A stretch of DNA of 64,000 bases from an uncultured Candidatus Saccharibacteria bacterium. GTDB lineage: Bacteria; Patescibacteriota; Minisyncoccia; Phycocordibacterales; UBA5272. Below the pieces are notes generated by a model. That model did no database searches. It was not told where the DNA came from and was given only the letters and a program-made list of their open reading frames with translations. The stretch covers positions 2,237 to 66,236 of the forward strand of contig CAYJED010000005.1 of the NCBI GenBank assembly GCA_964369115.1. The letters run 5' to 3'. How positions within the stretch are numbered: the stretch's first letter is position 1; each line of letters begins with the position of its first letter. Below, one piece after another: positions 1 through 56,813 of this stretch. Position numbers and translations under genes: made by a program.

Positions 1-5
1 CCACA

Positions 6-1475
6 ATGTACAAAATTATTTTGTACGCACTTTTACTTCTCATTATTCAGGCGTTCATTGGAACTTTCTTAGGATTTGTTTCTTTTTCTTTTGTGGAGCT
101 TTTGGTAAGCCTTCTTGTTATTTCTTCGGTGACACTTTGTAGTCATTTTCTGTTTCGTAAACTGTATAGTGCAGAGGTAAGTGCAGAATCGAGTTATATC
201 TCTTTGTTTATTTTGTTTCTTATTCTTGCGCCATCTACTGAAAAGGGAGATATTCTTATGATGGCTGCAGCTTCTTTTATTATGGTTGCTTCAAAGTATG
301 TTGTTGCATACAGGTTGCGTCATATCTTTAACCCTGTTGCTTTCAGTCTTGTGTTTCTCGGTGTTCTTGGTTCAACACTTTCAATATGGTGGGTCGGGGC
401 GGTGTACTTTTTCCCAACAGTATTTCTTCTTGCTTTCCTTATGCTACGAAAGCTAAAGTGCTACAGCCTTTTCTTTAGTTACGTTATTTCAAGTCTTCTT
501 ACGGTCACTGCATATGCACTTTTTAGTGGTCGCGGAATAGATGAAGCATTTACTCAACATCTTATTTCCTGGCCATTTCTTTTCTTTGGTATCATTATGG
601 TGACTGAGCCGTTTACTATACCGGCGCGTAACCTTACTCAAGGTATATATGGAGCTCTTGTGGGTGTGCTCTCATCATTTCCGTACGCATTTCCGCCTCT
701 TTATAGTTCACCCGAGCTTGCACTTATTTTAGGAAATTTTTTTGCTTTTACAGTTTCTCTTAAAACTAAACCACTCCTTTTCTTTAAAGAAAAAAAACAA
801 ATAGCTCAAAATACATTTGAGTTTACTTTTACAAAAAAAGAACCTATTCCATATATTTCTGGGCAATATATGCAGTGGTCACTTCCACATCATAAAGAAG
901 ATGTTCGTGGAACAAAGCGTTACTTTACTATTGCTTCCTCTCCATACGATGAAGATATTAAGCTTGGTGTTAAGATTTTGGATAATGGGAGTACTTTCAA
1001 AAAAGAGTTAGCTGATTTACAAAAAGGGGATACGCTTCTTGTAAACTCTGTTCGAGGAGATTTTGTGCTTCCAACTGACACAACAAAAGCAGTGGTGTGT
1101 GTTGCTGGAGGTATTGGAATTACACCGTTTATAAGTATGCTTCGTACGCTTCTTCATACAAAAGAAAAACGTAACCTCAGTCTTTTTTACTTTGTTAATC
1201 AAAGAGAAGATATTGCCTATAAGGATGTTCTCCAAGAAGTAAAAGATACTTTAGGAATTACAACAGTGGTAAGTCTTTCTAAAGAAACTGTTGAAGGATA
1301 TGAATCTGGAATGTTAACAAAAGAGATGCTTGGTGTTCATATAAAAAGTATCACCGATACGTATTTTTATATTTCCGGTCCACCTATGATGGTGTCAGCA
1401 TATAAAGACCTCCTCATTTCGCTCGGTGTAAAAAGAGCATACATCGTTACTGACTTTTTCCCGGGACTTGAATAA
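6..1475 (+). CDS. Membrane-anchored FAD/NAD(P)-binding oxidoreductase (polytopic N-terminal domain fused to a ferredoxin-NADP-reductase-like C-terminal domain)
   Basis: The N-terminal ~270 aa are hydrophobic with multiple predicted TM helices. The C-terminal half carries an FNR-type FAD motif RYFTIASSP (RxYS) and an NAD(P) motif GGIGITP (GGxGxxP). It lies immediately upstream of apbE. Confidence 0.6.
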   Translation: MYKIILYALLLLIIQAFIGTFLGFVSFSFVELLVSLLVISSVTLCSHFLFRKLYSAEVSAESSYISLFILFLILAPSTEKGDILMMAAASFIMVASKYVVAYRLRHIFNPVAFSLVFLGVLGSTLSIWWVGAVYFFPTVFLLAFLMLRKLKCYSLFFSYVISSLLTVTAYALFSGRGIDEAFTQHLISWPFLFFGIIMVTEPFTIPARNLTQGIYGALVGVLSSFPYAFPPLYSSPELALILGNFFAFTVSLKTKPLLFFKEKKQIAQNTFEFTFTKKEPIPYISGQYMQWSLPHHKEDVRGTKRYFTIASSPYDEDIKLGVKILDNGSTFKKELADLQKGDTLLVNSVRGDFVLPTDTTKAVVCVAGGIGITPFISMLRTLLHTKEKRNLSLFYFVNQREDIAYKDVLQEVKDTLGITTVVSLSKETVEGYESGMLTKEMLGVHIKSITDTYFYISGPPMMVSAYKDLLISLGVKRAYIVTDFFPGLE

Positions 1476-1483
1476 GCTTATCT

Positions 1484-2377
1484 ATGAAGACGGAGCGTTT
1501 TTCACATGTGCTTACATTTGAAAGTATGGGGACTGTTTGGAAAGTTTCTTTTAAGGAATTTTTTCATGAAGAGAAAGTGAAAGAGATAGAGGGTGTGATA
1601 CAAACACACCTTACCACTTTTAATAATGTATATTCTCGTTTTAATCGTGATTCTTTCATTTCTAAGCTTCAAGAGGTGCGTGGGGTGGTGGAAGTACCAC
1701 ACGATCTCGTCGCTATGCTTAGGTTATATGCTAAGTATTATATGGTGAGTGATAAGAAGTTTACCCCATGTATTGGGGCGCTTCTTGAAGATGCTGGATA
1801 TGATGACGTGTACTCCTTTCAAGAAAAAGAAAGCAAACGCCCTGTGCCTGACTTTTTTGAAGCAGTAAAAATAGTTGATGACACACATATTTTTCTTAAT
1901 GATAGTGTTCTTCTTGATCTTGGTGCACTTGGAAAAGGGTATTGTGTTGATCGGTTGGTTGAGCTACTTCGTCCGTACACAGAAGAATCTTTCTTGGTTG
2001 ATGGAAGTGGAGATGTGTATTATGTTGGTAACGACTCTCTTGCTGTTGGACTTGAAGATCCAGATGATACAACGCAGGTGATAGGGGTTATTGCTATGAC
2101 AGAAGGTGGTATGTGTAGTTCGTCTACAAACCGTCGTGCGTGGGGTAGGTATTCGCATTATCTTGACCCAACCACCACTTCTTCTCCTTCGTTTATTCGA
2201 TCAAGTTGGGTGCTTGCTCAAACTGCTGCCGAAGCTGACGCTCTCTCTTCAGTACTTTTCTTTGTTGCTCCAGAAAAAATAGAAGAAGAGCTTGGTGTTA
2301 CTTTTTCATACTGTCTTTTAAATAACGAACGACACATAAAAAAATCACCGAATTTCTTGGCGACTTTTTTCTCATAA
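1484..2377 (+). CDS. apbE: ApbE-family FAD:protein FMN transferase (flavin transferase)
   Basis: ~300 aa soluble protein with the ApbE-like motif LDLGALGKGYCVDRLVELL (compare DLGGIAKGY). Adjacent to a membrane oxidoreductase and an FMN-binding-domain protein. Confidence 0.65.
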   Translation: MKTERFSHVLTFESMGTVWKVSFKEFFHEEKVKEIEGVIQTHLTTFNNVYSRFNRDSFISKLQEVRGVVEVPHDLVAMLRLYAKYYMVSDKKFTPCIGALLEDAGYDDVYSFQEKESKRPVPDFFEAVKIVDDTHIFLNDSVLLDLGALGKGYCVDRLVELLRPYTEESFLVDGSGDVYYVGNDSLAVGLEDPDDTTQVIGVIAMTEGGMCSSSTNRRAWGRYSHYLDPTTTSSPSFIRSSWVLAQTAAEADALSSVLFFVAPEKIEEELGVTFSYCLLNNERHIKKSPNFLATFFS

Positions 2378-2391
2378 TGCACCTTAAGTAA

Positions 2392-2910
2392 TTAACTTTT
2401 TGCTCCAAGCTTTACCTTCTGTAGCGCATCCATAAAACCCTTTGGTGTAAGTGATGATCCATTCACAACGGTGAGTGCTACTTCATCAATCTTCTTACCT
2501 ACAACAGCAGCACTAAACCCTTTACTAAATTCTCCTTGCCAACGAATACTCCCTGGGTTGGTTGCTTCACCTTTCCATGTTGCAGAAGTGATGATGTCAT
2601 CGGTGAGTGTGATAGACACCTCTACATGTTCTTCTCCAGCAGGAGAAGTGTAAGTTCCTTTGTTGGTGTAGATTCCGTTTTTGTATACAGTTGTTTTTGC
2701 GAGCTCTTCTTTTGTGAGAGGGAGTTCATTTTTTTGCCCTTCATTTGCTGTTTGACCCTTTGTTTCTTCTTTTGTTGTGATAGAGGTTTCTGCTACTTCT
2801 TCTTTTTTAGATCCACTCACATACATTGCAATTCCTGCAATAGCTACAACAGAAACAATACCAATAATTCCTTTTTTAAGAGCGCTTGGCCTGGTTGTGT
2901 TTGATTCCAT
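2392..2910 (-). CDS. Membrane-anchored FMN-binding domain protein (probable ApbE flavinylation substrate)
   Basis: Likely start is the internal Met (MESNTTRPSALKKGIIGIVSVVAIAGIAMYV), which gives one TM anchor. The C-terminal domain resembles the FMN_bind family (RnfG/NqrC-like), with VVNGSSLTPKGF near the C-terminus (compare the flavinylation motif D-x-SGAT-x-T/S). The 5' extension in the ORF track is probably spurious. Confidence 0.5.
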   Translation of the reverse strand: MESNTTRPSALKKGIIGIVSVVAIAGIAMYVSGSKKEEVAETSITTKEETKGQTANEGQKNELPLTKEELAKTTVYKNGIYTNKGTYTSPAGEEHVEVSITLTDDIITSATWKGEATNPGSIRWQGEFSKGFSAAVVGKKIDEVALTVVNGSSLTPKGFMDALQKVKLGAKS

Positions 2911-2957
2911 ATAATAGTCAGTATATCGAAACTCTTCAATATGTAAATGTGAAATGT

Positions 2958-2987
2958 AAAAGGCGCGACCGCATAGGTCGCGCCTCT
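2958..2987 (-). terminator. Rho-independent terminator (GC hairpin aggcgcgacc-gcat-aggtcgcgcct) downstream of the GNAT gene
   Basis: 10-bp GC-rich inverted repeat followed by a U-run on the minus strand. Confidence 0.5.
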
Positions 2988-3548
2988 CTACTTGCAAAAA
3001 GCTCTCGACAAGATGTCGTCTTTTACAAGTAGGATTGCTTCAGCTTCCCCGCTCAAGCCTGTCATGGATTCCGCTTTTCCGGCAAAGCGGAATCCATACT
3101 TTTGGTAAAATCCCACATGTGCCGGGTTGACGATACACATGGCACTTGTTACGCCAAGCAGAACAGCGCGACGCTCGACCTCTCGAATCATAAGAAGGGC
3201 GACACGTTTGCAGTGTTTGCTTGGGGTTGTTGCAAACGACCCAATGTACATCCATTTTTTTTCGGATGTACGGAGGGCAACAAGCTTTTCATGGAAAAGC
3301 TTGTCTGCGGGTAGATTTCCGTTGTCGACCATGTATGAGATGGTGCCGACAACACAAGCGTCTTCTTCTGCAACGAGGATTTCGTTGGAAGGACGAAACA
3401 TCTGCTTTCCAATTTTCAGAAGACTGGTTATCCAGTCCATCGAAAAAGAAAAGCAAACGTAGCCCTTCTTGGTGTAGTTTCCTACCACCAAGAAAAAAGC
3501 TGAGACAGCTTCCAACGTGGAAGCTTGACGGACCAGTACGTGCGTCAT
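2988..3548 (-). CDS. GNAT-family N-acetyltransferase
   Basis: Acetyl-CoA-binding-like core ...RVALLMIREVERRAVLLGV...VNPAHVGFYQKYGFRFAG typical of GNAT motifs A/B. Confidence 0.6.
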   Translation of the reverse strand: MTHVLVRQASTLEAVSAFFLVVGNYTKKGYVCFSFSMDWITSLLKIGKQMFRPSNEILVAEEDACVVGTISYMVDNGNLPADKLFHEKLVALRTSEKKWMYIGSFATTPSKHCKRVALLMIREVERRAVLLGVTSAMCIVNPAHVGFYQKYGFRFAGKAESMTGLSGEAEAILLVKDDILSRAFCK

Positions 3549-3751
3549 CGCAAACTCCTTTTGGGCTTATGGCCCATAAGGGGAGTTGTGACAACCGTTT
3601 GGGCCAAAGTAATGACGGGTTGGTGAGAAAGATCAGTGAGGGAAAGGGAATCCCCCCCCTATATTTCGATTATATCATATATATAATATTTGTCAAGCAT
3701 CTCTTGTTTACCCACATAATGTGTCTAACTATCCTGATATACTCTTACTAT

Positions 3752-4399
3752 ATGAAAGAAACTTCGCCAGAACAGCTTATTGCAAAACCTAGGTACTATG
3801 CCCGCCTTCTTGAGGCATTTATTCTCTTTGTTGTTGCTGTGTTTGCAACACATTTTGCAAGTAAGTATGCTCACATTAAAGCAAGTAACCACGTAGAAGA
3901 TATTGTTCTTAGTAATACTCGTGTATACGATTCTGAGTTCTTTTTTGTACACGGTGCAATAATGCTTTCGCTTTTTGTGGTAGCGCTCTGTTTTCGTTTT
4001 GCAAAGACAGCACCTTTTGTTATTAAGACGGTATCACTTTTTATTATCATCCGCGCAATGTTTGTTTCAATGACCCATATTGGGCCGTACCCAACCAAAC
4101 TTGAACTTGAGTCGAGTCTCCTTGATTTTATTACGTCAGGAAATGATCTCTTCTTTTCTGGGCATACTGGATTACCATTCTTGATTGCGCTTCTTTTCTG
4201 GAAACATTTGTATGTACGAACTCTCTTTTTGGTGGCGTCTGTGATGTTTGGAATTACGGTACTTCTCTCACACCTTCACTACACAATTGATGTTTTTGCG
4301 GCATTCTTTATTACGTACACTATTTATCATTTGGGAATTAAGTTTTTCAAGAAGGATTATCTCTTCTTTCAGGAAGAAGAACATAAACATCACGCATAA
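3752..4399 (+). CDS. PAP2_C / sphingomyelin-synthase-like membrane phosphotransferase
   Basis: Polytopic membrane protein with SMS/PAP2_C D3-D4-like motifs FFSGHTG and HYTIDVFAAFFITYTIYH. The track ORF start at 3221 overlaps the antisense GNAT gene, so the start is more likely Met at 3719 or 3752. Confidence 0.45.
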   Translation: MKETSPEQLIAKPRYYARLLEAFILFVVAVFATHFASKYAHIKASNHVEDIVLSNTRVYDSEFFFVHGAIMLSLFVVALCFRFAKTAPFVIKTVSLFIIIRAMFVSMTHIGPYPTKLELESSLLDFITSGNDLFFSGHTGLPFLIALLFWKHLYVRTLFLVASVMFGITVLLSHLHYTIDVFAAFFITYTIYHLGIKFFKKDYLFFQEEEHKHHA

Positions 4400-4401
4400 G
4401 T

Positions 4402-4812
4402 ATGGAACATTCACTCTCTCTTCCTCGTATTCATATAGATAATCAGCCGCACCTTGTTAAAGAAGGGGTGTTTATTGTTGATGATGAAGTGTGGAGTACG
4501 CAGAAACGTATTGCAAGAATTTATGGAAGAAGTGTTCCTACAATAAACGATCACCTTAAAAAAATTTACGGAGAAAAAGAACTCACAAGGAACATAAGTG
4601 AACGAGAACTTATGGTAACGCAGCAGGAAGGGAAGAAAAAAGTGTCACGAAAGATTTATGTGTATAGCACTGATGTTGTGATCGCTATCGGATTTCGTGT
4701 AAAAGGGGAATGGGGTAAAGAGTTCAGAATTTGGGCACGAGAGGTGGTAAGAGGAAGTTACGACCCTCAAGATCAGGTGAAGCATTTAGTAAAAAAAGAA
4801 AGAGGGTTTTAA
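4402..4812 (+). CDS. RhuM-family protein (short, N-terminal RhuM-like domain only)
   Basis: TQKRIARIYGRSVPTINDHLKKIYGEKEL...IAIGFRVKGEWGKEFRIWAREVV matches the conserved RhuM core pattern (TxxxIAxxxGxSxPTINxHLKNI...GYRVxSxxGxxFRxWA). Confidence 0.5.
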   Translation: MEHSLSLPRIHIDNQPHLVKEGVFIVDDEVWSTQKRIARIYGRSVPTINDHLKKIYGEKELTRNISERELMVTQQEGKKKVSRKIYVYSTDVVIAIGFRVKGEWGKEFRIWAREVVRGSYDPQDQVKHLVKKERGF

Positions 4813-18680: not shown

Positions 18681-20273
18681 ATGTCTTTATTTTTAACAAA
18701 AAAGAAGATCGTCATTGGCGCCCTTATATTTTTATTTTTTGGGGCGGTTGTTTCGTTTGCTGTGTTTTTTTCGAATGATAAAAACGAAGTTTTTTTAGTT
18801 AAGTCTCAGTCTATGACGGAAGAGGTTGTTGCAACAGGCAGAGTTGAAGGTTTAACAAGTGCATCTTTTGGTTTTAAAAATGGAGGTAAGGTGACTTCGC
18901 TTTTGGTAAGCGTTGGGGATACTGTTAAAAAAGGACAAGAGCTTCTTTTTCAGGATACAAGTGCTCTTGATTCACAGATAGCAGAACTTGATGCAGCCAT
19001 TAGAGTGGAACGTGCGCGCCTTAGTCAGTTGCGGGCAGGGTCTTCTTTAGAAGAGATTGAAATAGTTTCTTCAAATGTTGAAGGGGCAGGGGTTGCTTTA
19101 GAGAGCGCAGAAACAAATCTTACGATTGCTAAACAAGCTGTTGTTGACGCTCTTAAAAGTACGTATACAATTGCTGAAGATGGGGTTAAAAATAAGGCCG
19201 ACAAACTCTTTACTAACCCTAACTCAAATGATCCACGACTTTTATTTCAGTCCTCTAATTTCCTACTTGGAAATGAATTAGAGGCAATGAGGGTTGGTGT
19301 GGGCAAGGAACTAAAAGAGCTTAGTAAAGAAGTCTCTGGTCTCAGTGTTGATTCAGATCTCAGTGGAAAGATAACCGCAATAAGAAAAAGGGTTGAGGCT
19401 GTGAAGGTTTTTTTGGAAAAGACTTCTCAATACACTGTTTCCGTTGAGGCTCTTCCTTCGGCACTGCTTCAGACTTCTTTTGAGGTAACGAAAGCTGAGC
19501 TCACACAAGCAAAAAATGCAATTAACTCTTCTCTTTCTCAGATCACTCAAGCTCAGGCAACGTTTACACAAACAACATCCGTTAAAGCTTCCGCAAAAAC
19601 AACTCTCACTACAGTTAATAGGCAGCTTGAGCAAGTTAAAGCCTCTGCACGAGGGACTGACGTTGCTGTGTACCAAGCTCAGCTTGAGCAAGCTATGGCA
19701 GCAAAAAGAAAAGTAGAAACTTTGCGTAGTGACTTTGTTATCACCGCTCCTTTTGATGGGGTTATTACAGATGTTCCTATAAAGCTAGGTGAAGTTGCAC
19801 AGGGTGGTGTTCCTGCTGTTTCGATTCTTTCATATGAAAAATTACAAATAAAGGCAAATATTGTTGAGCATAATATAGTTAGAGTGCGCATTGGTCAGCA
19901 AGTGTTCTTTACCCTTGATGCAATGCCTTCTAAAAAGTTTAAAGGTAAGGTTATCGCAATTGATCCTGCAGAAAAAGAAATCAATAATACCATTTATTAT
20001 AAAGCAACAATTGATCTTGAAGAGAAGGTTGAATTTTTGCGCCCAGGAATGACAGCAAATGTTTTTATTGTTGCTTCTCAGCTAGAAGATATTATTGCTG
20101 TTCCTGCAGCGAGTATTTTTGAGCGAGAAGGGGTTCGGTATGTGAAGGTATTACGCGGCAAAGATGAAGAAGAAAGAGTTGTCACTGTTGGAATTTATGA
20201 TAGAGAAGGAATGGTGCAGATAATCGAAGGTCTTCAGTCAAACGAAATAATTGCCCTTTCCCCAACATTATGA
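18681..20273 (+). CDS. HlyD-family periplasmic adaptor (membrane fusion protein) of a MacAB-like efflux system
   Basis: N-terminal TM, a long coiled-coil middle region, and a C-terminal beta-barrel-like segment ...VITAPFDGVITDVPIKLGEV... Confidence 0.55.
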   Translation: MSLFLTKKKIVIGALIFLFFGAVVSFAVFFSNDKNEVFLVKSQSMTEEVVATGRVEGLTSASFGFKNGGKVTSLLVSVGDTVKKGQELLFQDTSALDSQIAELDAAIRVERARLSQLRAGSSLEEIEIVSSNVEGAGVALESAETNLTIAKQAVVDALKSTYTIAEDGVKNKADKLFTNPNSNDPRLLFQSSNFLLGNELEAMRVGVGKELKELSKEVSGLSVDSDLSGKITAIRKRVEAVKVFLEKTSQYTVSVEALPSALLQTSFEVTKAELTQAKNAINSSLSQITQAQATFTQTTSVKASAKTTLTTVNRQLEQVKASARGTDVAVYQAQLEQAMAAKRKVETLRSDFVITAPFDGVITDVPIKLGEVAQGGVPAVSILSYEKLQIKANIVEHNIVRVRIGQQVFFTLDAMPSKKFKGKVIAIDPAEKEINNTIYYKATIDLEEKVEFLRPGMTANVFIVASQLEDIIAVPAASIFEREGVRYVKVLRGKDEEERVVTVGIYDREGMVQIIEGLQSNEIIALSPTL

Positions 20274-21502
20274 GTCTTCATGATCTTAACGCTGCGCTTT
20301 TCATAGCTTATAAGACAATTGTAAAAGGTAACAAGTCAGTAACTATTCTTCTCATTACTGTTCTCAGCCTTGTTTTTTTTAACCTTATTTTTATAAAAGC
20401 ATTTCTTACTGGTTTTTCTGAAGGTGTTCTCCAATCGATGATAGACACCAGCACTGCGCATATTATTCTTTCACCAGAAGAGAAGCCTATTCAAAAAAGT
20501 TTTATACCAAATCAAGAAAAATTACGTAATCAAATTGAAACAATTCCAGGTGTCGTAGGCACACTAAGACATTATTCTGTCGGAGGGACCATTTCTTTTG
20601 ATAAAAATAAAACAGGATCAGTAAAGTATGTTTCTGCGCCAATTTTAGGTTTTAATCAGAAAGAAGAAAAGACAATTATGGGCGTACATAAAGTTATACG
20701 ATCAGGCACGTTTCCTGACATACTTAACGATGACGAGATTTTAATCGGTGCAAGTTTGGCTGGTGATTATGAAAACAGTGTTCAAGGTTCTGATTTGGGG
20801 GGCGTGCGCGCAGGTGACAAAGTTACTGTTCATTATGTGAACGGAGTTAATAAAATTTATACCGTACGAGGTATTTTTGAAGTAACAATAGGTTTTACAG
20901 GTAGTAGTGCTTTTATTTCTGACAAAGAAGCAGAGCGTATTCTTTCCGTATTTGATCAATCTTCAGAAATTTTGGTGCGTGTTGATCTTACAAAATATCC
21001 AATTGAATCGTATGTAAGACGTATACAAACTATTGCCCCACAACTAAAAATAGAGATATATAAAGACCGCCTTGCTGCAGTGGGTAGTCTTATTGATGCT
21101 TTTAATGTTATAGCGCTCATTATTGTTATTGTAAGCATTCTTGTTTCTGCTGCTACCATTTTTATAATGATTTATATTAATGCGCTTAGCAAGAAAAGAC
21201 ATATTGGAATTTTAAAAGCGATTGGTATTAAAAATGAAAGTATCGAGTTATCGTATATGTTGCAAGCTGTTTTTTTTTCACTTCTTGCCACAATAACCGG
21301 AAGCGTATTTTTTGTAGGAATTGTTCGTCCTTACATGGAAGCGAATCCAATCAAGATGCCGTATGGAGACGCTCTTCTTATTGTTGCTCCACAAGAAATT
21401 ATTATTTACGCAGTTTTACTTATTGGGGCTTCTTTATTTGCGGGAATGTTTTCTTCTCGAGTTATTGCAAGAAAGCCAATAGTTGAAAATATTTGGAAAT
21501 AG
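20270..21502 (+). CDS. ABC transporter permease (FtsX/MacB-type)
   Basis: N-terminal TM, a large periplasmic domain, and a C-terminal FtsX-like 3-TM bundle. Its start overlaps the upstream adaptor stop, indicating translational coupling. Confidence 0.55.
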   Translation: MSLHDLNAALFIAYKTIVKGNKSVTILLITVLSLVFFNLIFIKAFLTGFSEGVLQSMIDTSTAHIILSPEEKPIQKSFIPNQEKLRNQIETIPGVVGTLRHYSVGGTISFDKNKTGSVKYVSAPILGFNQKEEKTIMGVHKVIRSGTFPDILNDDEILIGASLAGDYENSVQGSDLGGVRAGDKVTVHYVNGVNKIYTVRGIFEVTIGFTGSSAFISDKEAERILSVFDQSSEILVRVDLTKYPIESYVRRIQTIAPQLKIEIYKDRLAAVGSLIDAFNVIALIIVIVSILVSAATIFIMIYINALSKKRHIGILKAIGIKNESIELSYMLQAVFFSLLATITGSVFFVGIVRPYMEANPIKMPYGDALLIVAPQEIIIYAVLLIGASLFAGMFSSRVIARKPIVENIWK

Positions 21503-22223
21503 TAATTATATGATTCATGTACGTAATCTAAAAAAAATATATGGAGAGGAGGGGGAGTCTCTGGTAAAAGCTCTTAACGATGTTTTTTTTACTATTAAAG
21601 ATGGAGAATTTATTGGACTTATGGGGAGAAGTGGTTCAGGTAAATCAACTCTGCTTCATCACTTAGGTCTTCTCGATACTCAAACTGAAGGAACTATTAT
21701 TATTGACGGTTTCGACACCACACTTCTTTCCGAGGATGAAAAAACACTTTTTCGACTTACTAAGCTTGGATATGTTTTTCAAGAGTATGGGCTTATTCCT
21801 GAATTTTCTGCATTAGAAAATGTATGCTTCCCTGCTCTTTCTCTTGGAAACATGGAGGCAACTTCTCGTGGCGAAGAATTACTTAGGTATGTTGGTTTAG
21901 GTGACAGAATACATTATTACCCTCATGAGCTTTCTGGTGGACAGCAGCAACGTGTGGCAATCGCCCGAGCTCTTATTAATGACCCTGCAATTATTTTTGC
22001 TGACGAACCTACTGCTAACCTAGATAGTCTTGGCACTGAAATGGTTCTCGCCCTCTTTAAAAAACTACATGAAGATTTTGGTAAAACCATTGTAATGGTA
22101 ACGCACGAAGAAAGTGATCGCCACTTGGTGGACAGGGTTCTTTTTATGAAAGACGGCTTTATTGTGAGTGATACACGCAAAGAAGATGTTGCAACAAGTA
22201 AGAGTAAAGTGTTGCGCTCTTAA
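21483..22223 (+). CDS. ABC transporter ATP-binding protein (MacB/LolD-like)
   Basis: Walker A GRSGSGKST, signature LSGGQQQRVAIARAL, Walker B IIFADEPT. Confidence 0.8.
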   Translation: MKIFGNSNYMIHVRNLKKIYGEEGESLVKALNDVFFTIKDGEFIGLMGRSGSGKSTLLHHLGLLDTQTEGTIIIDGFDTTLLSEDEKTLFRLTKLGYVFQEYGLIPEFSALENVCFPALSLGNMEATSRGEELLRYVGLGDRIHYYPHELSGGQQQRVAIARALINDPAIIFADEPTANLDSLGTEMVLALFKKLHEDFGKTIVMVTHEESDRHLVDRVLFMKDGFIVSDTRKEDVATSKSKVLRS

Positions 22224-22487: not shown

Positions 22488-25400
22488 ATGACAAATCCTC
22501 ATCAACAAAAAACCGTAAACGAAAAAGAACAAGAGACACTTCTCTTCTGGCAAGAAAATAACATTTTTGAGAAGTCTATAGTAAATCCAGGAGGTGAAAA
22601 ACCTTTAGGTGACTTTTCTTTTTATGATGGACCTCCTTTTGCGACAGGGCTTCCTCACTATGGTCATATTCTGGCGGGTACCATTAAAGATGCTGTGCCA
22701 CGCTATCAGACGATGAAGGGTAATAGTGTTCGTCGTGTATGGGGATGGGACTGTCACGGTCTTCCAATAGAAAACCTTATTGAGAAAAAATTAGGACTTG
22801 CAAGCAAAAAAGACATTGAAGATTTTGGTATTGATAAGTTTAATAAAGATGCGTATGAAAGCGTGCTTCAGTATGAAAAAGAGTGGCAGAGTATCGTGCC
22901 TCGACTAGGAAGATGGATAGATATGGATCATCCGTATAAGACAATGGATGCAACGTATACAGAAAGTATTTGGTGGGCTTGGAAAACGTTGTATAAAAAG
23001 AAACTTGCCTATGAGGGTAATAAAATGATGCATATCTGCCCACGTTGCGAAACACCGCTTGCACAGTCAGAAGTTGGTCTTGAATACCATGATGTTACCG
23101 ATCTCTCTGTGACGGCCAAATTTGAGCTCGTGGATGAGCCTGGTACATTTGTGCTTGCTTGGACAACTACCCCATGGACACTTCCTGGAAATACCGCGCT
23201 TGCAATTAATAGGGAGATTGTCTATGTGAAAGTGAAAGCTTTTAAAAGGCTTCCTCTTGCGGAAGCTGTTGACGTTAATAATAGCGGTTATGCTGGCAAT
23301 GGTGACCCTGAATTTTACATTCTTGCAAAAACTCAATTTGAGGAATATAAAAATCACTCAGAAAAAGATTTTGCTATTTTTAAAATAGAAGAAGAATTTA
23401 CAGGAGAAAAACTTGAGGGCAAAACATATCACCCTGTATTTTCATATTTCAAAGATACTCACACTGACTATAAAGAAAAGATTTGGAAAATTTGGCATGC
23501 AGATTTTATTACTGATGATACGGGAACTGGTATTGCACACGAGGCGCCAGCATTTGGTGCTGAGGATATGGAACTCGCAAAGCTTCACAATATCCCGGTG
23601 ATTAAACATGTAAAGATGGATGGAACATTTATTGACGCCGTCACCGATTTTGCTGGAAAGAAAGTAAAACAAAAAGATGACACTCAGTCAGCGGACATCG
23701 AAATCATTAAGTGGCTTGCTCATAACGGTAAACTTTTTGAGAAACATAAAATTATTCACTCATACCCACTTTGTTGGCGATGTAAAACGCCGTTACTCAA
23801 CTATGCGACAAGTAGTTGGTTTGTTGATGTTCCGTCTATAAAAGATACACTCATTTCAGAAAATAAAGCTATTGGATGGACACCGTCTCATACTCGTGAC
23901 GGGCGTTTCGGTAAATGGCTAGAAGGTGCTCGTGAATGGGCGGTTTCACGCACAAGATATTGGGGCGCACCACTTCCTGTTTGGAAAAATGCTTCAGGAA
24001 CTGAAGTGAAGGTTATTGGGTCACTTAAAGAACTTGTAGAGAATTCATTTTCACAACCTAAAAATACGTACTATGTGATGCGTCACGGTGAGGCTCACAG
24101 TAATGTAAAAGGGGTAATGGACAAAGGAACAGATGTTCATAATCATCTTACCGAAAAGGGGGTAACGCAGGTGGAAGTGTCAGCAAAGAATTTACATGAC
24201 AAGGGAATTGATATGATACTTGCTTCTCCTGTTGTGCGAGGAAGAGAAACGGCAGAGATTGTCAGTAAAGAACTTGGTCTTTCCGTTTCATTTGATGAGC
24301 GACTCAAGGAATATGATATGGGTATCTACGATGGTAAAACTCGTGAGGAATTCTTCGCTCAATTTGATAGTTCTTTTGTAGAATACGATGCTCGTCCAGA
24401 AGGAGGAGAGACACATAGAGAGATGATGCATCGTATGATGGCTCTTGTGCACGAGCTTGAGAATACCTACGAAGGTAAAACTATACTCCTTGTTACCCAC
24501 GGAGGACCTGCTCGTATGGTATTTGCTGGCGCATCACTTCTTACCGAAGAAGAAGTTGTGACAGATGATGTTCATAATGGAGCAACTCTTTATCCGACAA
24601 ATGCAGAAGTGCGCCATCTTCCACTTCATATTGTTCCTCGTGACGAAACTGGAGCTGTTAATCTCCATCGTCCGTACATTGATCAGGTGGTGCTTAAAGA
24701 TAACACAGGTGCACCGATGCATCGTATCGTGGACGTATTTGATTGTTGGTTTGAGTCAGGGTCTATGCCATTTGCTCAGCTGCACTATCCATTTGAAAAT
24801 AAAGAACTCTTCGATAAAAATTACCCAGCACAGTTTATTGCTGAAGGGCTTGATCAGACACGAGGGTGGTTTTATTCCCTCATTAATCTTGGTGTGGGTC
24901 TTTTTGGAAAAGCTCCATATGAGCATGTTATTGTAAACGGCCTTGTTCTCGCATCTTCTGGCGTAAAACTTTCTAAGAGTGAAAAAAATTACACTGACCC
25001 AATGCTTCTTGTAGAAAAGTATGGAGCAGACGCTATGCGCTATGCGCTCCTCTCCTCTCCTGTGGTAAAAGGGGAAAACCTTCAATTTGATGATGAACTT
25101 ATTGCTGACGTGTATAAGAAATGTATTTTACGTCTTGAAAATGTGCTTACCTTGTATCAGATGAATGCACCTGAAGCGGTTACTCCTTCAACAACATCTG
25201 ACAATGTTCTTGATCAATGGATGATCTCAAGAGTGCATGAGCTTATTACCGCTTCTACAGAAGGGTATGATGCATATCTTCTTGATGATGCAACTCGTGG
25301 AATTGGGGAAATTATTGATGATCTCTCTGTGTGGTATACACGCAGATCACGTGAACGTCTTAAAGGGGATATGGGCGAAGAAGAAAAAATAAAAGCATAC

Positions 25401-26003
25401 GAAACTCTTTCATATGTACTCCTTACACTTACTAAAGTAATGGCCCCAGTAATGCCATTTATTGCGGAACGAGTGTACAAGGACCTTAATGGTAAAAAAG
25501 AATCGGTACATCTTGAAAAGTGGCCAGAGATATCTTCTGTAGATACCGCTCTTCTTAAAAAAATGAAGAATACACGTAAAGTTGCCTCGCTTGCACTTAT
25601 GGAGCGCAACAAAGCAAAAATTGGTGTTCGTCAGCCTCTTACGTCTATAACAACAGGATTTATATTTAACGAACTATATACAGACATTATTGCAGATGAA
25701 GTAAACGTAAAACAAGTTATTGAAGATACAACTCTCGGAGAAGACGAAGTGAAGCTTGATACCGTCATTACTGAAGAACTTCAAAAAGAAGGAGATGTGC
25801 GTAACTTAATGCGTGCTATTCAAGATCTCCGTAAAGAGAAAGGGGTTGCGTACACAGATATAGTTCACGTTGTTTCTGATCATGAAATTATCCTTAATCC
25901 GCAAGTTGCTCCGGCGTGTAAAGTTATAGCTTCAGTTGAAAATACTGTAAACGGAACAGAAGTTGAACTTTCTTTTGGAAAAGTAATTGTTTCACTTAAG
26001 TAA
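22488..26003 (+). CDS. ileS: Isoleucine--tRNA ligase, type 2 (eukaryote-like), with an inserted histidine-phosphatase-like domain
   Basis: PFATGLPHYGHILAGTIKD (HIGH), WDCHGLPIE, editing CP1 domain, KLSKS, and FDCWFESGSMPFAQ. An insertion between ~aa 521 and 715 carries the histidine-phosphatase motifs MRHGEAHSN and LVTHGG. Confidence 0.9.
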   Translation: MTNPHQQKTVNEKEQETLLFWQENNIFEKSIVNPGGEKPLGDFSFYDGPPFATGLPHYGHILAGTIKDAVPRYQTMKGNSVRRVWGWDCHGLPIENLIEKKLGLASKKDIEDFGIDKFNKDAYESVLQYEKEWQSIVPRLGRWIDMDHPYKTMDATYTESIWWAWKTLYKKKLAYEGNKMMHICPRCETPLAQSEVGLEYHDVTDLSVTAKFELVDEPGTFVLAWTTTPWTLPGNTALAINREIVYVKVKAFKRLPLAEAVDVNNSGYAGNGDPEFYILAKTQFEEYKNHSEKDFAIFKIEEEFTGEKLEGKTYHPVFSYFKDTHTDYKEKIWKIWHADFITDDTGTGIAHEAPAFGAEDMELAKLHNIPVIKHVKMDGTFIDAVTDFAGKKVKQKDDTQSADIEIIKWLAHNGKLFEKHKIIHSYPLCWRCKTPLLNYATSSWFVDVPSIKDTLISENKAIGWTPSHTRDGRFGKWLEGAREWAVSRTRYWGAPLPVWKNASGTEVKVIGSLKELVENSFSQPKNTYYVMRHGEAHSNVKGVMDKGTDVHNHLTEKGVTQVEVSAKNLHDKGIDMILASPVVRGRETAEIVSKELGLSVSFDERLKEYDMGIYDGKTREEFFAQFDSSFVEYDARPEGGETHREMMHRMMALVHELENTYEGKTILLVTHGGPARMVFAGASLLTEEEVVTDDVHNGATLYPTNAEVRHLPLHIVPRDETGAVNLHRPYIDQVVLKDNTGAPMHRIVDVFDCWFESGSMPFAQLHYPFENKELFDKNYPAQFIAEGLDQTRGWFYSLINLGVGLFGKAPYEHVIVNGLVLASSGVKLSKSEKNYTDPMLLVEKYGADAMRYALLSSPVVKGENLQFDDELIADVYKKCILRLENVLTLYQMNAPEAVTPSTTSDNVLDQWMISRVHELITASTEGYDAYLLDDATRGIGEIIDDLSVWYTRRSRERLKGDMGEEEKIKAYETLSYVLLTLTKVMAPVMPFIAERVYKDLNGKKESVHLEKWPEISSVDTALLKKMKNTRKVASLALMERNKAKIGVRQPLTSITTGFIFNELYTDIIADEVNVKQVIEDTTLGEDEVKLDTVITEELQKEGDVRNLMRAIQDLRKEKGVAYTDIVHVVSDHEIILNPQVAPACKVIASVENTVNGTEVELSFGKVIVSLK

Positions 26004-46373: not shown

Positions 46374-46606
46374 GAGCAAACCTTCTCTTTCTTGTTTCAT
46401 CCCTTCAACTATTTGAGGGGATCTTTTTATTATGAGATTTTATTTTTATTTTGTCAAAATATAAAAAAGTTACATAGGCCTTGCCTGTGTAACTTTTTTA
46501 TTCACTTGTTTTTTATAAACAAAGTGCGCCTCCTTGGACCAGAAACCTATGGACCTGTTCGTGTACTAAGGCAAGATTTCTACAGTTAACCAAAAAATAC
46601 TCTGAG

Positions 46607-46679
46607 TGCGCCTACCTGGACTCGAACCAGGGACCAGTCGTGTATAAGACGACGGCTCTACCAACTGAGCTATAGGCGC
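46607..46679 (-). tRNA. tRNA with anticodon UAU (Ile; decodes AUA)
   Basis: The minus strand GCGCCTA-TA-GCTC-AGTTGGTA-GAGC-C-GTCGT-CTTATAC-ACGAC-TGGTC-CCTGG-TTCGAGT-CCAGG-TAGGCGC-A gives a perfect 7-bp acceptor, U8, a GG in the D-loop, a TTCGAGT T-loop, U33, anticodon T34A35T36, and A37. CCA is not encoded. Confidence 0.7.
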
Positions 46680-50574: not shown

Positions 50575-53500
50575 TTATCCTTCGTTACTTGTACTTACGT
50601 TAACTCGTTTTGTTTCTTTTGTTCCTGTTTGGCACGCTGCTGTAAATTCTGTTGTGTAACGAATTTGTCGTACTGTTTTCTTTCCAAGGGCTTTGTAGTC
50701 AGTAGGGTTATCTGTCGGACTGTGACCTGGAGCAAAATTACGAAGAGATGTGCGCAGATTTCTTTTTCCGTTCGGATCATTTCCGTCAGTTTCTTCTGCT
50801 GGACTGCTGAGGATATCATTGATTCCTTTCTCGTAGTCTTTTTGTTCTTGTGAACATGAATTATTTACACAGAGAACTTTTGCGCTAAGGGTACAAGTAT
50901 TATCGGGATACTGAATAGCCCACGTAAGTACTGTTTGACCTCCTTTTTCAATGGTTACAGGAGAAATGTTAAGTAATGCTTTTGGTGATTTTGGTACCAT
51001 ATCGAAATAAACTGACCATGGATCACTTTCGACATTTCCGTGCTTACAGATAATGGTATATGTCGCACTTGCATCAGGTGTAAAGTCTTGTGGCCCACTG
51101 TAGACAGTGTTATCTATTTCTAGTACACCGTTTTTTAGAATTTTCCATGCATTTGCACTAGAACAAATGAAGTTAATGTTTGGTGGAAATCCTGGGAATC
51201 CGTATTCTCCTGTTTTTACAACACCAGTAACTTCAGGGTCTACACATTTTCCTCCAACGCTGTCCCATTTTCCAGGTCCTGCAGTACAAGCAACTGATAC
51301 ATCTTCAGAATCAAGGGGTGGTTCGCCATTATTATAGAGGAATATTTTTACGGTAGATTTTGCAGCGGTGAGATTTATCGGCTGGTTAACTCCACTGTTA
51401 GCTGTATAGACGATGGTGCCATTTGGACTATTATGCGTAATTTGAGATGTTCCTATTGGATCTTGTGTAGACCATGTAGCACGCACCTGACAAGTGCTAT
51501 CTCCTGTTGCGATGCTGCATGACAGTGGTGCAACAGAAAGTGATCCCGTAGGTAGGGTACATGCAGGCTTAGTGACAGATCCGTTGTTACAGTTTCCACC
51601 TGCACATCCTCCATTACCACAAACTACACAACTACCAGCATCCATAACACGATCTGCTGGACAGATATCACATGTTGGTGGATTCGTAGCACCGTTAGCA
51701 CAGGATGGAGGGGTACATACAGGAGGGTTTGCTCCACCGTTATTACAACTTCCGTCTGTACATCCTCCATTTAGACACACTACACAACTACCAGCATCCA
51801 TAACACGATCTGCTGGACAGATATCACATGTTGGTGGATTCGTAGCACCGTTAGCACAAGCATTAGGCTCACAACTGTCTCCATCCCATGATGTACCATT
51901 TGCACAACTTGCTGTAGTGTTTGTTGTGTCAAGAATTGTTCCTCCAACAAGAACTCCAGCATTGTTTACACCTCCATACTGAACACGATAACACCCACCT
52001 GTGTAGCCACTAAACACAGAAGCACTTTGGTCTCCTGTAAGATATGAACCATAGATGCCATTACTACAGTCAGTGAGAATAACAGGGGTTATATTTGCAG
52101 AAGTCCATGTAAGAGTTGGATTACAAGAAGAATTACCAGAGGATACTGTACAAGAAAATGGTTCGTTAGTGAATGATGCTGTTGGTCCTGCATTAGGCGC
52201 GCAATTATCTCCATCCCACGATGTTCCGTTTGCACAGCTAGTTGTAATCACTTTAGTCGCAAGCTCTACGGTGTTGTTGTACAAATAGTAGGTGATTCCA
52301 CTTCCACTGTAAGGAACAGCTACACTGTAGTTATTTTCACTGTCGTCATTGATTTTAACATTAACATTTCCTGTTCTTGTTACAGAGCTTCCTCCAGCAT
52401 TTTGAGGGTAACTAACGCTCCATGATAGTGACACATTACAGGTGCTGTTTCCTGAACTGATAACACAAGAGTTAGCAGAAGAGGTGAGAGTTCCTGACAT
52501 AAGTCGACATCTGTTATCTGTGTGCACATGTCTTCCTGTGTTACATTGTCCAGTAACGTCAATAGTTTTAAGAGTTACCCCATTGTTTTTTAATGAATGT
52601 CTAGATGGTGAAAGGTAACCAAAAGCTGAAACGCTTTTTGTGTCCTCATGTTGTGGACTATAGATTACAGCACTGTCAGAATCTCGTACAATTTGTGTTG
52701 TTGCACTTTCTGGGTTTGTAACTTTCCAATACAAGGTGACAGCACAGTTGGTTGCGTCATCAGCAATGGTACACGTTGTACCACTAGGTGCTGTAAGAGT
52801 TCCAGTCATAGTGCCAGGACATGTAGGGTAGTTCGCATGTCCATTTTTACATGTTCCTGCACATTTCCATGCATTGTCTGCGCCAAATGCATCATAGTTT
52901 GTGTCAGTTGAAACATTACATCCCCATTTAGGAGCGGAACATGAAAGGCTTCCACATTTCCAATTCCAAGCAGCTGCTGTATCTGCTGCATCTGTGAATG
53001 TTCCACTAGAACACGCTACTCCTCCTGAAGGTTGTGCATCAGGATTTTGAATAGTTCCATTTCCTGTACCACATGAGTCAGCGGGTGCCGTTGTCGTAAA
53101 CGTCGCATCTGCTGAGAAGTAGTATGTTCCACCACTATCTCGTACAAATCCTCTGTAGTGGTATGTGGTATTTGCCAACATACTTCCACCGCGCGCATGA
53201 CTAAACACTCCTGTAGACACTCCTCCTGCATTAGTTGTTTCTGCCGAACAGTTAGTTAAAGGATCTACAACTGATCCCCAACAGGTACCACGTTCAGTTA
53301 TTGTTTTTGTTCCTGCTGATCTAAAGTTTGCTCCAAGTGTTGCTCCTGTTGAGGTGATGTTTGATGCAGTAGGGGTGTCGATGACGGGGTTTAAGGTACA
53401 TGCAGGCTTAATGGTAGAGCCGTTATTACAAACATGGTTTGTACATCCCGAACCTTGACAAGCTTCACAGGAGTCACCGTCCCATGCAGAGTTTGAAGCA

Positions 53501-56492: not shown

Positions 56493-56813
56493 ATGCGGAT
56501 TCATATTTTTAAATTAAAAAAAAATACTGAATTTCTTCTAAAGCAGTGGGGAGAAGAAGTTTCTTCTGATAGTAAAGAAGAAGCGATTCAAAGTCTTTTA
56601 GAAGAAAACTGCCTTGAAGAATCATTACGAATTTTTAAAATTAACAATGATATGTATCTTGTTGGTGTAATGGTAGCCTTAGATTCAAAAGGTCTTTTTG
56701 AACCAAATCAAAAAAGATCTATAAATAAAAAACACTTTTCTATTTTAAAAGAATGCATAGAAGAAGAAATTTCTCAAGATAAAATTTACAACGTTCGTGC
56801 AGATAAAAAATGA
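56493..56813 (+). CDS. Small protein upstream of the SagB-YcaO fusion (possible leader-peptide-binding/RRE-like accessory protein; hypothetical)
   Basis: 106-aa ORF whose stop overlaps the start of the downstream enzyme (ATGA), indicating translational coupling. No catalytic motif. The sequence is not Cys/Ser/Thr-rich, so it is not itself the precursor. Confidence 0.35.
   Translation: MRIHIFKLKKNTEFLLKQWGEEVSSDSKEEAIQSLLEENCLEESLRIFKINNDMYLVGVMVALDSKGLFEPNQKRSINKKHFSILKECIEEEISQDKIYNVRADKK

Follow-up and report, generated by a model that had tools for sequence, protein, structure and literature searches.

A member of the predicted NQR/RNF-like system with a leaderless ApbE in an uncultured Candidatus Saccharibacteria bacterium

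The DNA analyzed here, referred to as the window throughout, is a stretch of 64,000 nucleotides from an uncultured Candidatus Saccharibacteria bacterium (assembly GCA_964369115.1, contig CAYJED010000005.1). At its left end it carries three adjacent genes which form a member of the published, genome-predicted NQR/RNF-like system (PMC8238504, PMC11334425): gene 1 encodes a fusion of a membrane domain with an oxidoreductase module, gene 2 an ApbE-family flavin transferase and gene 3 a small membrane-anchored protein. The three open reading frames (ORFs) were confirmed at 6..1475 (+), 1484..2377 (+) and 2392..2997 (-). The motifs quoted in a preliminary description of this DNA were all recovered, RYFTIASSP at nucleotides 918-944, GGIGITP at nucleotides 1107-1127 and LDLGALGKGY at nucleotides 1913-1942, and VVNGSSLTPKGF, which had been put forward there as the candidate flavinylation site, was found in gene 3 where it spans codon 2452-2454. 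The features of the locus are as follows.

1..1475 (+): gene 1, NqrB/RnfD-like membrane domain plus FNR-type FAD/NAD(P)H module, truncated by the edge of the window
6..770 (+): membrane domain of gene 1, amino acids (aa) 1-255 in window numbering, predicted shortened RnfD/NqrB homologue (Pfam, NCBIfam, profile, hhalign)
774..1472 (+): FNR-like module of gene 1, aa 257-489, FAD_binding_6 and NAD_binding_1, C-terminal TDFFPG (Pfam)
1484..2377 (+): gene 2, ApbE-family FAD:protein flavin mononucleotide (FMN) transferase, 297 aa (Pfam ApbE)
2392..2910 (-): gene 3, signal-anchored protein with a predicted C-terminal remote FMN_bind domain, 172 aa (synteny, hhalign, AlphaFold2, Foldseek)
2452..2454 (-): codon of Ser153, to which FMN is predicted to be attached, part of the invariant VVNGSSLTPKGFMDAL (36 homologues, SGAT alignment)
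2821..2871 (-): hydrophobic anchor (GIIGIVSVVAIAGIAMY) in the N-terminal part of gene 3, after RPSALKK (hydropathy and charge-bias script)
2920..2947 (-): possible own promoter of gene 3, TTTACA-16-TATACT (consensus match only)
2962..2984 (-): hairpin (-24.7 kcal/mol, z -7.3) of the intrinsic terminator that ends the upstream GNAT/FeeM-like gene, with the U-run UUUUACAUUU behind it

Gene 1 is cut by the edge of the window. Its earlier description as a fusion of a membrane domain with an FNR module was right, but 489 aa is not its full length: a 98%-identical homologue (P0001) has 13 additional N-terminal residues and 502 aa in total, the in-window Met (nucleotide 6) being residue 14 of this protein. 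The family-wide N-terminal motif IDxFLNxxTMYR likewise starts 13 residues before the in-window Met, outside the window. Gene 3, which had been called divergent, is instead convergent with the ApbE gene, tail to tail with a spacer of 14 bp. Its start is most likely the ATG at 2910, yielding 172 aa, because a longer ORF would take in the terminator hairpin of the GNAT gene; the ORF beginning at TTG 2997, which runs through this terminator, was rejected, and near-identical relatives of gene 3 in the databases have 173 aa. The hairpin delimits the 5' end of the gene-3 transcription unit. Promoter-like matches in the gene-3 region are not more numerous than expected from shuffled sequence.

The C-terminal half of gene 1 is readily recognized. 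Pfam searches gave NAD_binding_1 (PF00175) with an E-value of 1.2e-14 (55.3 bits against a cut-off of 22) and FAD_binding_6 with 2.7e-4, and partial NCBIfam matches were to flavohemoprotein, NqrF and BenC reductases. In the AlphaFold2 model of the protein (mean predicted local distance difference test score, pLDDT, of 86) about ten helical segments are followed by a beta/alpha FNR fold, for which Foldseek returned flavohemoglobin, the NqrF FAD domain, FNR and the SpNOX dehydrogenase domain as best matches (E 1e-16 to 1e-12). The order of the helices and the positive-inside charges suggest to us that the modeled protein has ten membrane segments with both termini inside and a vestigial loop, described below, outside.

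For the membrane domain the window sequence by itself gives a weak signal: NQR2_RnfD_RnfE (PF03116) remains below threshold (E 5.3e-5, 23.2 bits against a cut-off of 27.7) and the NCBIfam nqrB model matches with an E-value of 1e-3. At the level of the family, PF03116 is precomputed in many homologues with 40-55% identity, the sole sequence match of the family profile in the PDB is RnfD (8ahx_D, E 0.032), and hhalign aligns the domain with E. coli RsxD at 84% probability (E 7e-6) over the last ~100 membrane residues, a region in which the TDP/TEP motif is common to both. Its other motifs are SKY, HIFNP, WWVG, RKLK and MVTEP, the last containing Glu201. Taken together, the domain is by sequence comparison a shortened NqrB/RnfD homologue, clear for the family and weak for the window protein alone, and the analogy with NQR/RNF drawn in the preliminary description thus amounts to homology, with an electron path that matches the published one.

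When RsxD was added to the family alignment (MAFFT), its Thr187 loop (GISQAT187PLD) proved to be shrunk to about nine residues in the fusion family. This remnant lies between the FNPA helix and WWVG and has no conserved Ser or Thr; the residue aligned to Thr187 is Ile in the window protein and variable across its subtype. Because of the reduced loop and the Ile or variable residue at the aligned position, the membrane domain is predicted to have lost its own covalent-FMN site. As an observation on a different set of fusions, those of the type B loci introduced below (e.g. L042:5962-7482; loci L008-L082), the Thr187-aligned residue before WW is Ser or Thr in 36 of 41 proteins and Ala stands at position -2 in 38 of 41 ([S/P]-A-[S/T]-W-W), so a site resembling the flavinylation site may persist in the transmembrane domain of type B, which would contradict what has been published.

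A ferric reductase or NOX identity of the membrane domain was also considered and rejected, as there is neither a PF01794 match among those listed nor a conserved pair of His residues. Ferric_reduct (PF01794) is absent from the Pfam matches listed for gene 1, and His106 is the only near-invariant His of the domain, in agreement with the earlier statement that this is not a bis-heme ferric-reductase domain.

Gene 2 had been named an ApbE, and this identity is borne out by Pfam (PF02424, E 4.8e-41, 141.5 bits, above threshold). Residues 9-269 align with the structures of E. coli ApbE, aa 9 falling on residue 17 of the deposited chain (PDB 4xgw/2o18), and further alignments were obtained with ApbE structures from Salmonella, Thermotoga and Treponema. 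The motifs DLGxxGKGY, H-x-x-DP (SHYLDP) and ADA(L/W) (AEADALS) are all conserved. Judged by its sequence, gene 2 is a bona fide ApbE with predicted FMN transferase activity. At the position of E. coli Tyr60, mutation of which converts the FAD-binding enzyme into an FAD pyrophosphatase, gene 2 has Phe, again an aromatic residue, which would fit the FAD-binding class and not the pyrophosphatase class.

Gene 3 begins with a short, positively charged stretch; a single hydrophobic segment and a linker of low complexity then lead to a globular domain of about 100 aa. Our topology call is based on our own hydropathy and charge heuristic, by which an N-terminal hydrophobic segment is present in 69 of 70 homologues and follows the positive-inside rule in 59 of 70; lipoboxes occur in eight of the 70, namely in Actinomycetota and in one Peribacteria metagenome-assembled genome (MAG). 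Because of these N-terminal anchors, positive-inside charges and lipoboxes, gene 3 is predicted to be oriented N-in/C-out with its domain extracytoplasmic.

Neither Pfam nor NCBIfam gave a significant match to gene 3 alone, and among 36 close homologues only four matched FMN_bind (PF04205) at E<=1. About two thirds of the syntenic homologues are, however, canonical FMN_bind proteins (Pfam E 1e-10 to 5e-8) with the motif D-x-x-S-G-A-T. Comparison by hhalign of the gene-3 group with this canonical SGAT group gave a probability of 96.7% (E 3e-10), and the same profile alignment places V-V-N-G-S-S-L-T on I-I-S-G-A-T-x-T and Ser153 on the flavinylated Thr. In addition, the AlphaFold2 model has a pLDDT above 90 over the domain (aa ~72-172), and its Foldseek matches include the flavinylated FMN_bind structures 3o6u, 8p2a and 8p2b as well as NqrC and RnfG, although their E-values, at 4e-3 to 6e-2, are weak; when gene-3 profiles were compared directly with E. 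coli RsxG by hhalign, the result did not reach significance. Fold and profile comparison thus identify a putative remote FMN_bind domain, as the earlier description of a single-pass protein resembling this family had supposed, and since Ser153 aligns with the flavinylated Thr of the SGAT motif it is the predicted FMN acceptor, lying within the site proposed before. The acceptor motif is invariant across the 36 homologues. Of the pattern D-x-x-[S/T]-G-A-[S/T] the window sequence T-V-V-N-G-S-S retains only the Gly and the hydroxyl acceptor, which is Ser.

To place the locus in a wider context, 80 related genome loci were compared. The operon gene 3-ApbE-fusion, with the gene-3 homologue immediately upstream of ApbE, is found in 66 of them and spans five phyla (Patescibacteria, Chloroflexota, Actinomycetota, Alphaproteobacteria and Spirochaetota), whereas the gene order in the window is rearranged to fusion-ApbE followed by the convergent gene 3. 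The fusion protein has more than 4,290 database matches, and those with a name among the best 120 are Patescibacteria; at least 486 loci were confirmed among GTDB species representatives, and the best genome loci are mostly titled as MAGs of candidate phyla. The system is therefore common in the Candidate Phyla Radiation (CPR) and not exceptional. That such a capability would be noteworthy in a metabolically minimal organism, as had been suggested, does not hold with more than 4,000 database relatives and with the CPR already a main host in the parts of the published survey that treat this system. Cultivable carriers exist in Ktedonospora, Dictyobacter, Mesorhizobium, Agreia and Arthrobacter.

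The loci fall into two strictly co-varying types, in which the ApbE subfamily tracks the acceptor motif of gene 3. Type A, which includes the window, comprises 23 loci with an ApbE of about 290 aa and the motif [S/N/A]-G-[S/A]-S-L-[T/S]; its acceptor is Ser in all of them, and 18 of the 23 lack the canonical Asp at -6. Type B comprises 45 loci with an ApbE of about 247 aa and the canonical D-x-x-[S/T]-G-A-[T/S]. In sequence terms this co-variation is the pattern which would be expected of an enzyme-substrate pair.

With regard to other genes in the flanks of the 80 loci, a histidine kinase (18 loci), a response regulator (14), a MacB-type ABC transporter (17) and an HlyD-like protein (9) recur. 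Rarer are MsrA- and MsrB-like proteins, a VIT1-like and an NRAMP-like transporter, which were named by sequence reading and are found in three loci each.

From these data we consider it probable that the three genes specify an NQR/RNF-like module of two subunits for transmembrane electron transfer, together with its own flavin transferase. In the FNR module of gene 1, on the cytoplasmic side, FAD would be reduced by NAD(P)H, and electrons would then cross the membrane via the shortened NqrB/RnfD-like domain, probably through a non-covalent flavin like the riboflavin in NqrB. They would arrive at an FMN linked by a phosphoester bond to Ser153 of gene 3 on the outer face, and from there pass to an extracellular acceptor. 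The ApbE encoded by gene 2 would attach the FMN of gene 3 with FAD as donor. This scheme builds on the domain identities, the linkage of the three genes, the aligned acceptor Ser, the loss of the flavinylation loop and the N-in/C-out anchor of gene 3, while the electron steps, and with them the cofactor content, the direction of electron flow, the acceptor and the place in the cell where flavinylation occurs, would follow from homology to NQR/RNF and from the cited models. The parts and the logic of the preliminary description thereby stand, whereas its gene orientation, its location of ApbE and its view of the rarity of the system do not.

Several results weigh against this scheme, some of which concern ApbE. 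Canonical ApbEs are exported lipoproteins. In gene 2, which had been assumed to act outside the cytoplasm, we looked for a signal peptide, a lipobox and a transmembrane segment and found none of them. The motif MGT begins as early as residue 15, and the reading frame is closed by a stop five codons upstream. In the longest possible ApbE ORF of the 66 loci the motif MGT, IGT or MGMP is near the start in nearly all cases, and where, in a few cases, the ORF extends further upstream, the extension is free of hydrophobic segments; an N-terminal hydrophobic segment is likewise absent from all of the 150 nearest ApbE cluster representatives at 50% identity (E<=1e-33). The clade formed by the ApbE of the window and its relatives is thus predicted to be leaderless and cytoplasmic, which is at odds with a substrate that carries a signal anchor or a lipobox. 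An outright cytoplasmic ApbE without an exported substrate, which the preliminary description had regarded as fatal to its proposal, was found in its first half only, since ApbE is predicted to be cytoplasmic but an exported substrate is predicted as well. A signal peptide hidden behind an upstream start or TGA recoding was tried and rejected, because read-through yields neither a start nor a hydrophobic segment; no internal TGA occurs in the real genes of the window and 1 of 30 stops is TGA.

Other points on the same side concern gene 3 and its surroundings. The match of gene 3 to FMN_bind (E 0.3, 12.2 bits) does not reach the gathering threshold of 22. ApbE recognizes a seven-residue motif, and the acceptor motif of the window does not fit it at four of its five defined positions (the acceptor itself and -1, -3 and -6), Ser being tolerated as the acceptor but less preferred. 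A cofactor between FAD and the outer FMN could not be identified from the sequence. Neither a terminal reductase nor an acceptor-related gene is linked to the module among the Pfam-scanned ORFs of the 64-kb window, a terminal acceptor gene sought in the flanks of the 80 loci was not consistently present, and the literature searched contained no experimental study of any member of the NQR/RNF-like system.

As ApbE is leaderless, gene 3 would have to be flavinylated on the cytoplasmic side of the membrane, either ahead of its export or in the course of it, or else by another route. Possible ways out of the mismatch are cytoplasmic flavinylation of the C-terminal motif, a different role of ApbE, and an export route that is not recognized. 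We tentatively suggest, while holding it to be rather unlikely at present, that in both subtypes a dedicated clade of leaderless, cytoplasmic ApbEs flavinylates the still unfolded C-terminal motif, some 20 residues away from the end of the protein, either before Sec-type export or while it is under way, and that the type A pair has co-evolved a non-canonical motif usually devoid of the Asp. Export of pre-flavinylated, folded gene 3 by the twin-arginine (Tat) pathway was also considered, and inspection of the N-termini by eye revealed RR motifs that are at best sporadic among the homologues.

A different role of ApbE has to be weighed in this connection. The enzyme could handle flavin inside the cell, by hydrolyzing FAD, by supplying the membrane domain with FMN or riboflavin, or by modifying another cytoplasmic target, and gene 3 would then bind flavin non-covalently or serve for docking. 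The universal lack of a leader and the non-canonical acceptor motif in the subtype of the window speak for this, and cytoplasmic ApbE/substrate pairs such as that of the K. pneumoniae fumarate reductase are known, as are ApbE/Ftp enzymes that hydrolyze FAD. Against this, the motif of gene 3 is invariant and co-varies with the ApbE subfamily, the partners in type B retain the textbook D-x-x-S-G-A-T although the type B ApbE is leaderless too, the Phe at the Tyr60 position suits the FAD-binding rather than the pyrophosphatase class, and a conserved [S/T]-G-A-[S/T] site is not seen in the cytoplasmic parts of gene 1. We regard such a role as improbable, though it is the best surviving alternative to the two-subunit electron-transfer module.

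Less probable still would be an ion-coupled miniature NQR in which the NqrB/RnfD-like domain, with its invariant Glu201 (MVTEP), couples the oxidation of NAD(P)H to the movement of Na+ or H+ instead of simply conducting electrons outward. The homology of the domain to the ion-translocating subunits RnfD and NqrB and the invariant acidic residue in the TDP/TEP motif, which it has in common with RsxD, would be in keeping with this. However, NqrD/E, RnfA/E and a return path for electrons were not found in the window, NqrD/E and RnfA/E are not among the recurrent flanking families of the related loci, and there is no quinone- or ferredoxin-side module; the equivalence of Glu201 to a known Na+-site residue is a presumption.

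That gene 3 is an unrelated neighbor, IscU/NifU-like or a cell-surface protein, and that only genes 1 and 2 cooperate, was already disfavored and is very improbable: the window protein lacks a Pfam match, IscU/SufU are among its weak PDB sequence and Foldseek matches, one source calls a homologue 'NifU-like', and the gene is encoded on the other strand and has a putative promoter to itself, but in 66 of the 80 loci its homologues share an operon with ApbE and sit directly before it, hhalign ties them to the canonical FMN_bind partners at 96.7%, and the domain has no Cys ligands for a Fe-S scaffold, so that an IscU/NifU-like identity was rejected.

Returning to the two-subunit module, the published model, if right, would give fermentative, quinone-poor bacteria such as the CPR a direct outlet for electrons from NAD(P)H, which could be used for redox balance, iron reduction or envelope repair and which requires no more than two proteins and flavins. 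If the cofactor is indeed attached before export, such a route would spare the export of FAD and would suit monoderm cells and the CPR. The contrast between a cytoplasmic ApbE and an exported substrate in any case poses a concrete and testable question on where covalent flavinylation takes place.

There are also consequences for genome surveys. Because type A partners fall below the Pfam FMN_bind threshold and the type A ApbE is leaderless, it can be reasoned that a survey demanding a signal peptide on a Pfam-recognized ApbE or FMN_bind gene would drop the type A clusters. Flavinylation is reported to be under-represented in the CPR, and this loss of type A clusters may contribute to it; should flavinylation by the leaderless ApbEs be true, surveys which require a signal peptide on ApbE or on a Pfam-recognized FMN_bind protein would overlook this subtype and undercount flavinylation in the CPR.

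In the window, the module is neighbored by a GNAT/FeeM-like acyltransferase, a PAP2 membrane protein, a RhuM fragment and a GlcD-like FAD oxidase, the rest of the genes being housekeeping ones. The nearest of these features are the following.

2988..3548 (-): FeeM/GNAT-type N-acyl amino acid synthase-like gene (E 1e-18)
within ORF 3221..4399: PAP2_C membrane protein
4402..4812: RhuM fragment

On the other side, beyond the window, a 98%-identical contig shows a bAvd accessory protein and an RVT_1 reverse transcriptase, the signature of a diversity-generating retroelement, about 3 kb upstream of gene 1 (L001:347-1955), and a divergent methyltransferase is also found just upstream of the fusion gene on that contig.

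Further away in the window, HlyD-like, FtsX-permease and ABC-ATPase genes lie at 18681..22223 (+), 16 kb from the module. At 22488..26003 (+) a 1171-aa IleRS-like class I aminoacyl-tRNA synthetase has its catalytic domain split by a His_Phos_1 histidine-phosphatase insert at aa 529-689 (E 3e-36). A 743-aa fusion of a nitroreductase-family protein with a YcaO cyclodehydratase at 56810..59041 (+) resembles single-chain TOMM-type dehydrogenase/cyclodehydratases, and the 1921-aa ORF at 50575..56340 (-) gave no match in a Pfam search at E<=1e-4. The sole tRNA in the 64 kb is a tRNA-Ile with the anticodon TAT (UAU) at 46606..46679 (-); tRNA-Ile(UAU) is an uncommon bacterial means of reading AUA. The stop codons of the 30 main genes are TAA in 21, TAG in eight and TGA in one, the lone TGA overlapping the start of the next gene at 20270. 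As no real gene requires TGA read-through, the window uses the standard code with a strong avoidance of TGA.

Among known systems, NOX and ferric reductases (FRE, SpNOX) resemble gene 1 in that a polytopic membrane domain is followed by a C-terminal FNR-type module which carries electrons from NAD(P)H outward, but the membrane domain of gene 1 is not of the six-helix bis-heme type. The resemblance to Na+-NQR and RNF goes further. The membrane domain of gene 1 corresponds to NqrB/RnfD and its FNR module to the FAD/NADH domain of NqrF, while gene 3, with its N-terminal anchor, its predicted FMN_bind fold and an acceptor near the C-terminus, is similar to NqrC/RnfG, whose counterpart it would be in the published model. 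In contrast to these complexes, the window lacks the NqrA/D/E and RnfA/B/C/E subunits as well as a 2Fe-2S or ferredoxin domain, and no other NQR/RNF subunits are present among the Pfam-scanned ORFs of the 64-kb window. The membrane domain of gene 1 is also about 100 aa shorter than NqrB/RnfD and lacks the covalent-FMN loop, and its electrons would take a single one-way path whereas the path in Na+-NQR/RNF is semicircular.

In the flavin-based extracellular electron transfer of Listeria (Ndh2, EetA/B, PplA, FmnB), FmnB is a lipoprotein that is exported and receives its flavin through a dedicated exporter; in the window, no flavin exporter is linked to the module, and its ApbE is leaderless. The Listeria system, in which ApbE (FmnB) acts extracytosolically, works on the same principle, since electrons likewise run from cytoplasmic NADH to an ApbE-flavinylated, surface-anchored FMN_bind protein in a monoderm. 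The Listeria route runs through a type II NADH dehydrogenase and a quinone pool, and no quinone step is evident in the window. With regard to the location of ApbE, the cytoplasmic enzyme of Klebsiella pneumoniae, the single well-studied ApbE that likewise has no signal peptide, matures fumarate reductase, a soluble cytoplasmic substrate; the substrate linked to ApbE in the window is predicted to be exported.

The closest counterpart is the NQR/RNF-like system itself. In its sections on this system, Meheust 2021 (eLife, PMC8238504) defined it bioinformatically from 127 clusters, mainly of Actinobacteria and CPR, as a PF03116-PF00175 fusion in a cluster that also contains ApbE, an FMN-binding protein or both, with a signal peptide or lipidation site on one or both of the latter. 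From AlphaFold-Multimer predictions, Huang 2024 (mSystems, PMC11334425), in the corresponding passages, described two subunits with a transmembrane domain lacking the NqrB/RnfD flavinylation site and proposed a one-way flow from NAD(P)H to extracytosolic FMN. In the passages of both papers that were searched there is no mention of a leaderless ApbE or of a non-canonical acceptor subtype. Compared with the system as it appears in these passages, the window differs in its rearranged gene order, in a partner below the Pfam thresholds and in N-G-S-S instead of S-G-A-T. It agrees with it in the fusion of an NqrB/RnfD-like domain, which in the window protein alone stays below the PF03116 cut-off, to a PF00175 module, in the adjoining ApbE and in the predicted membrane-anchored FMN-binding partner and, as in the description by Huang 2024, in a transmembrane domain that does not have the flavinylated Thr of NqrB/RnfD.

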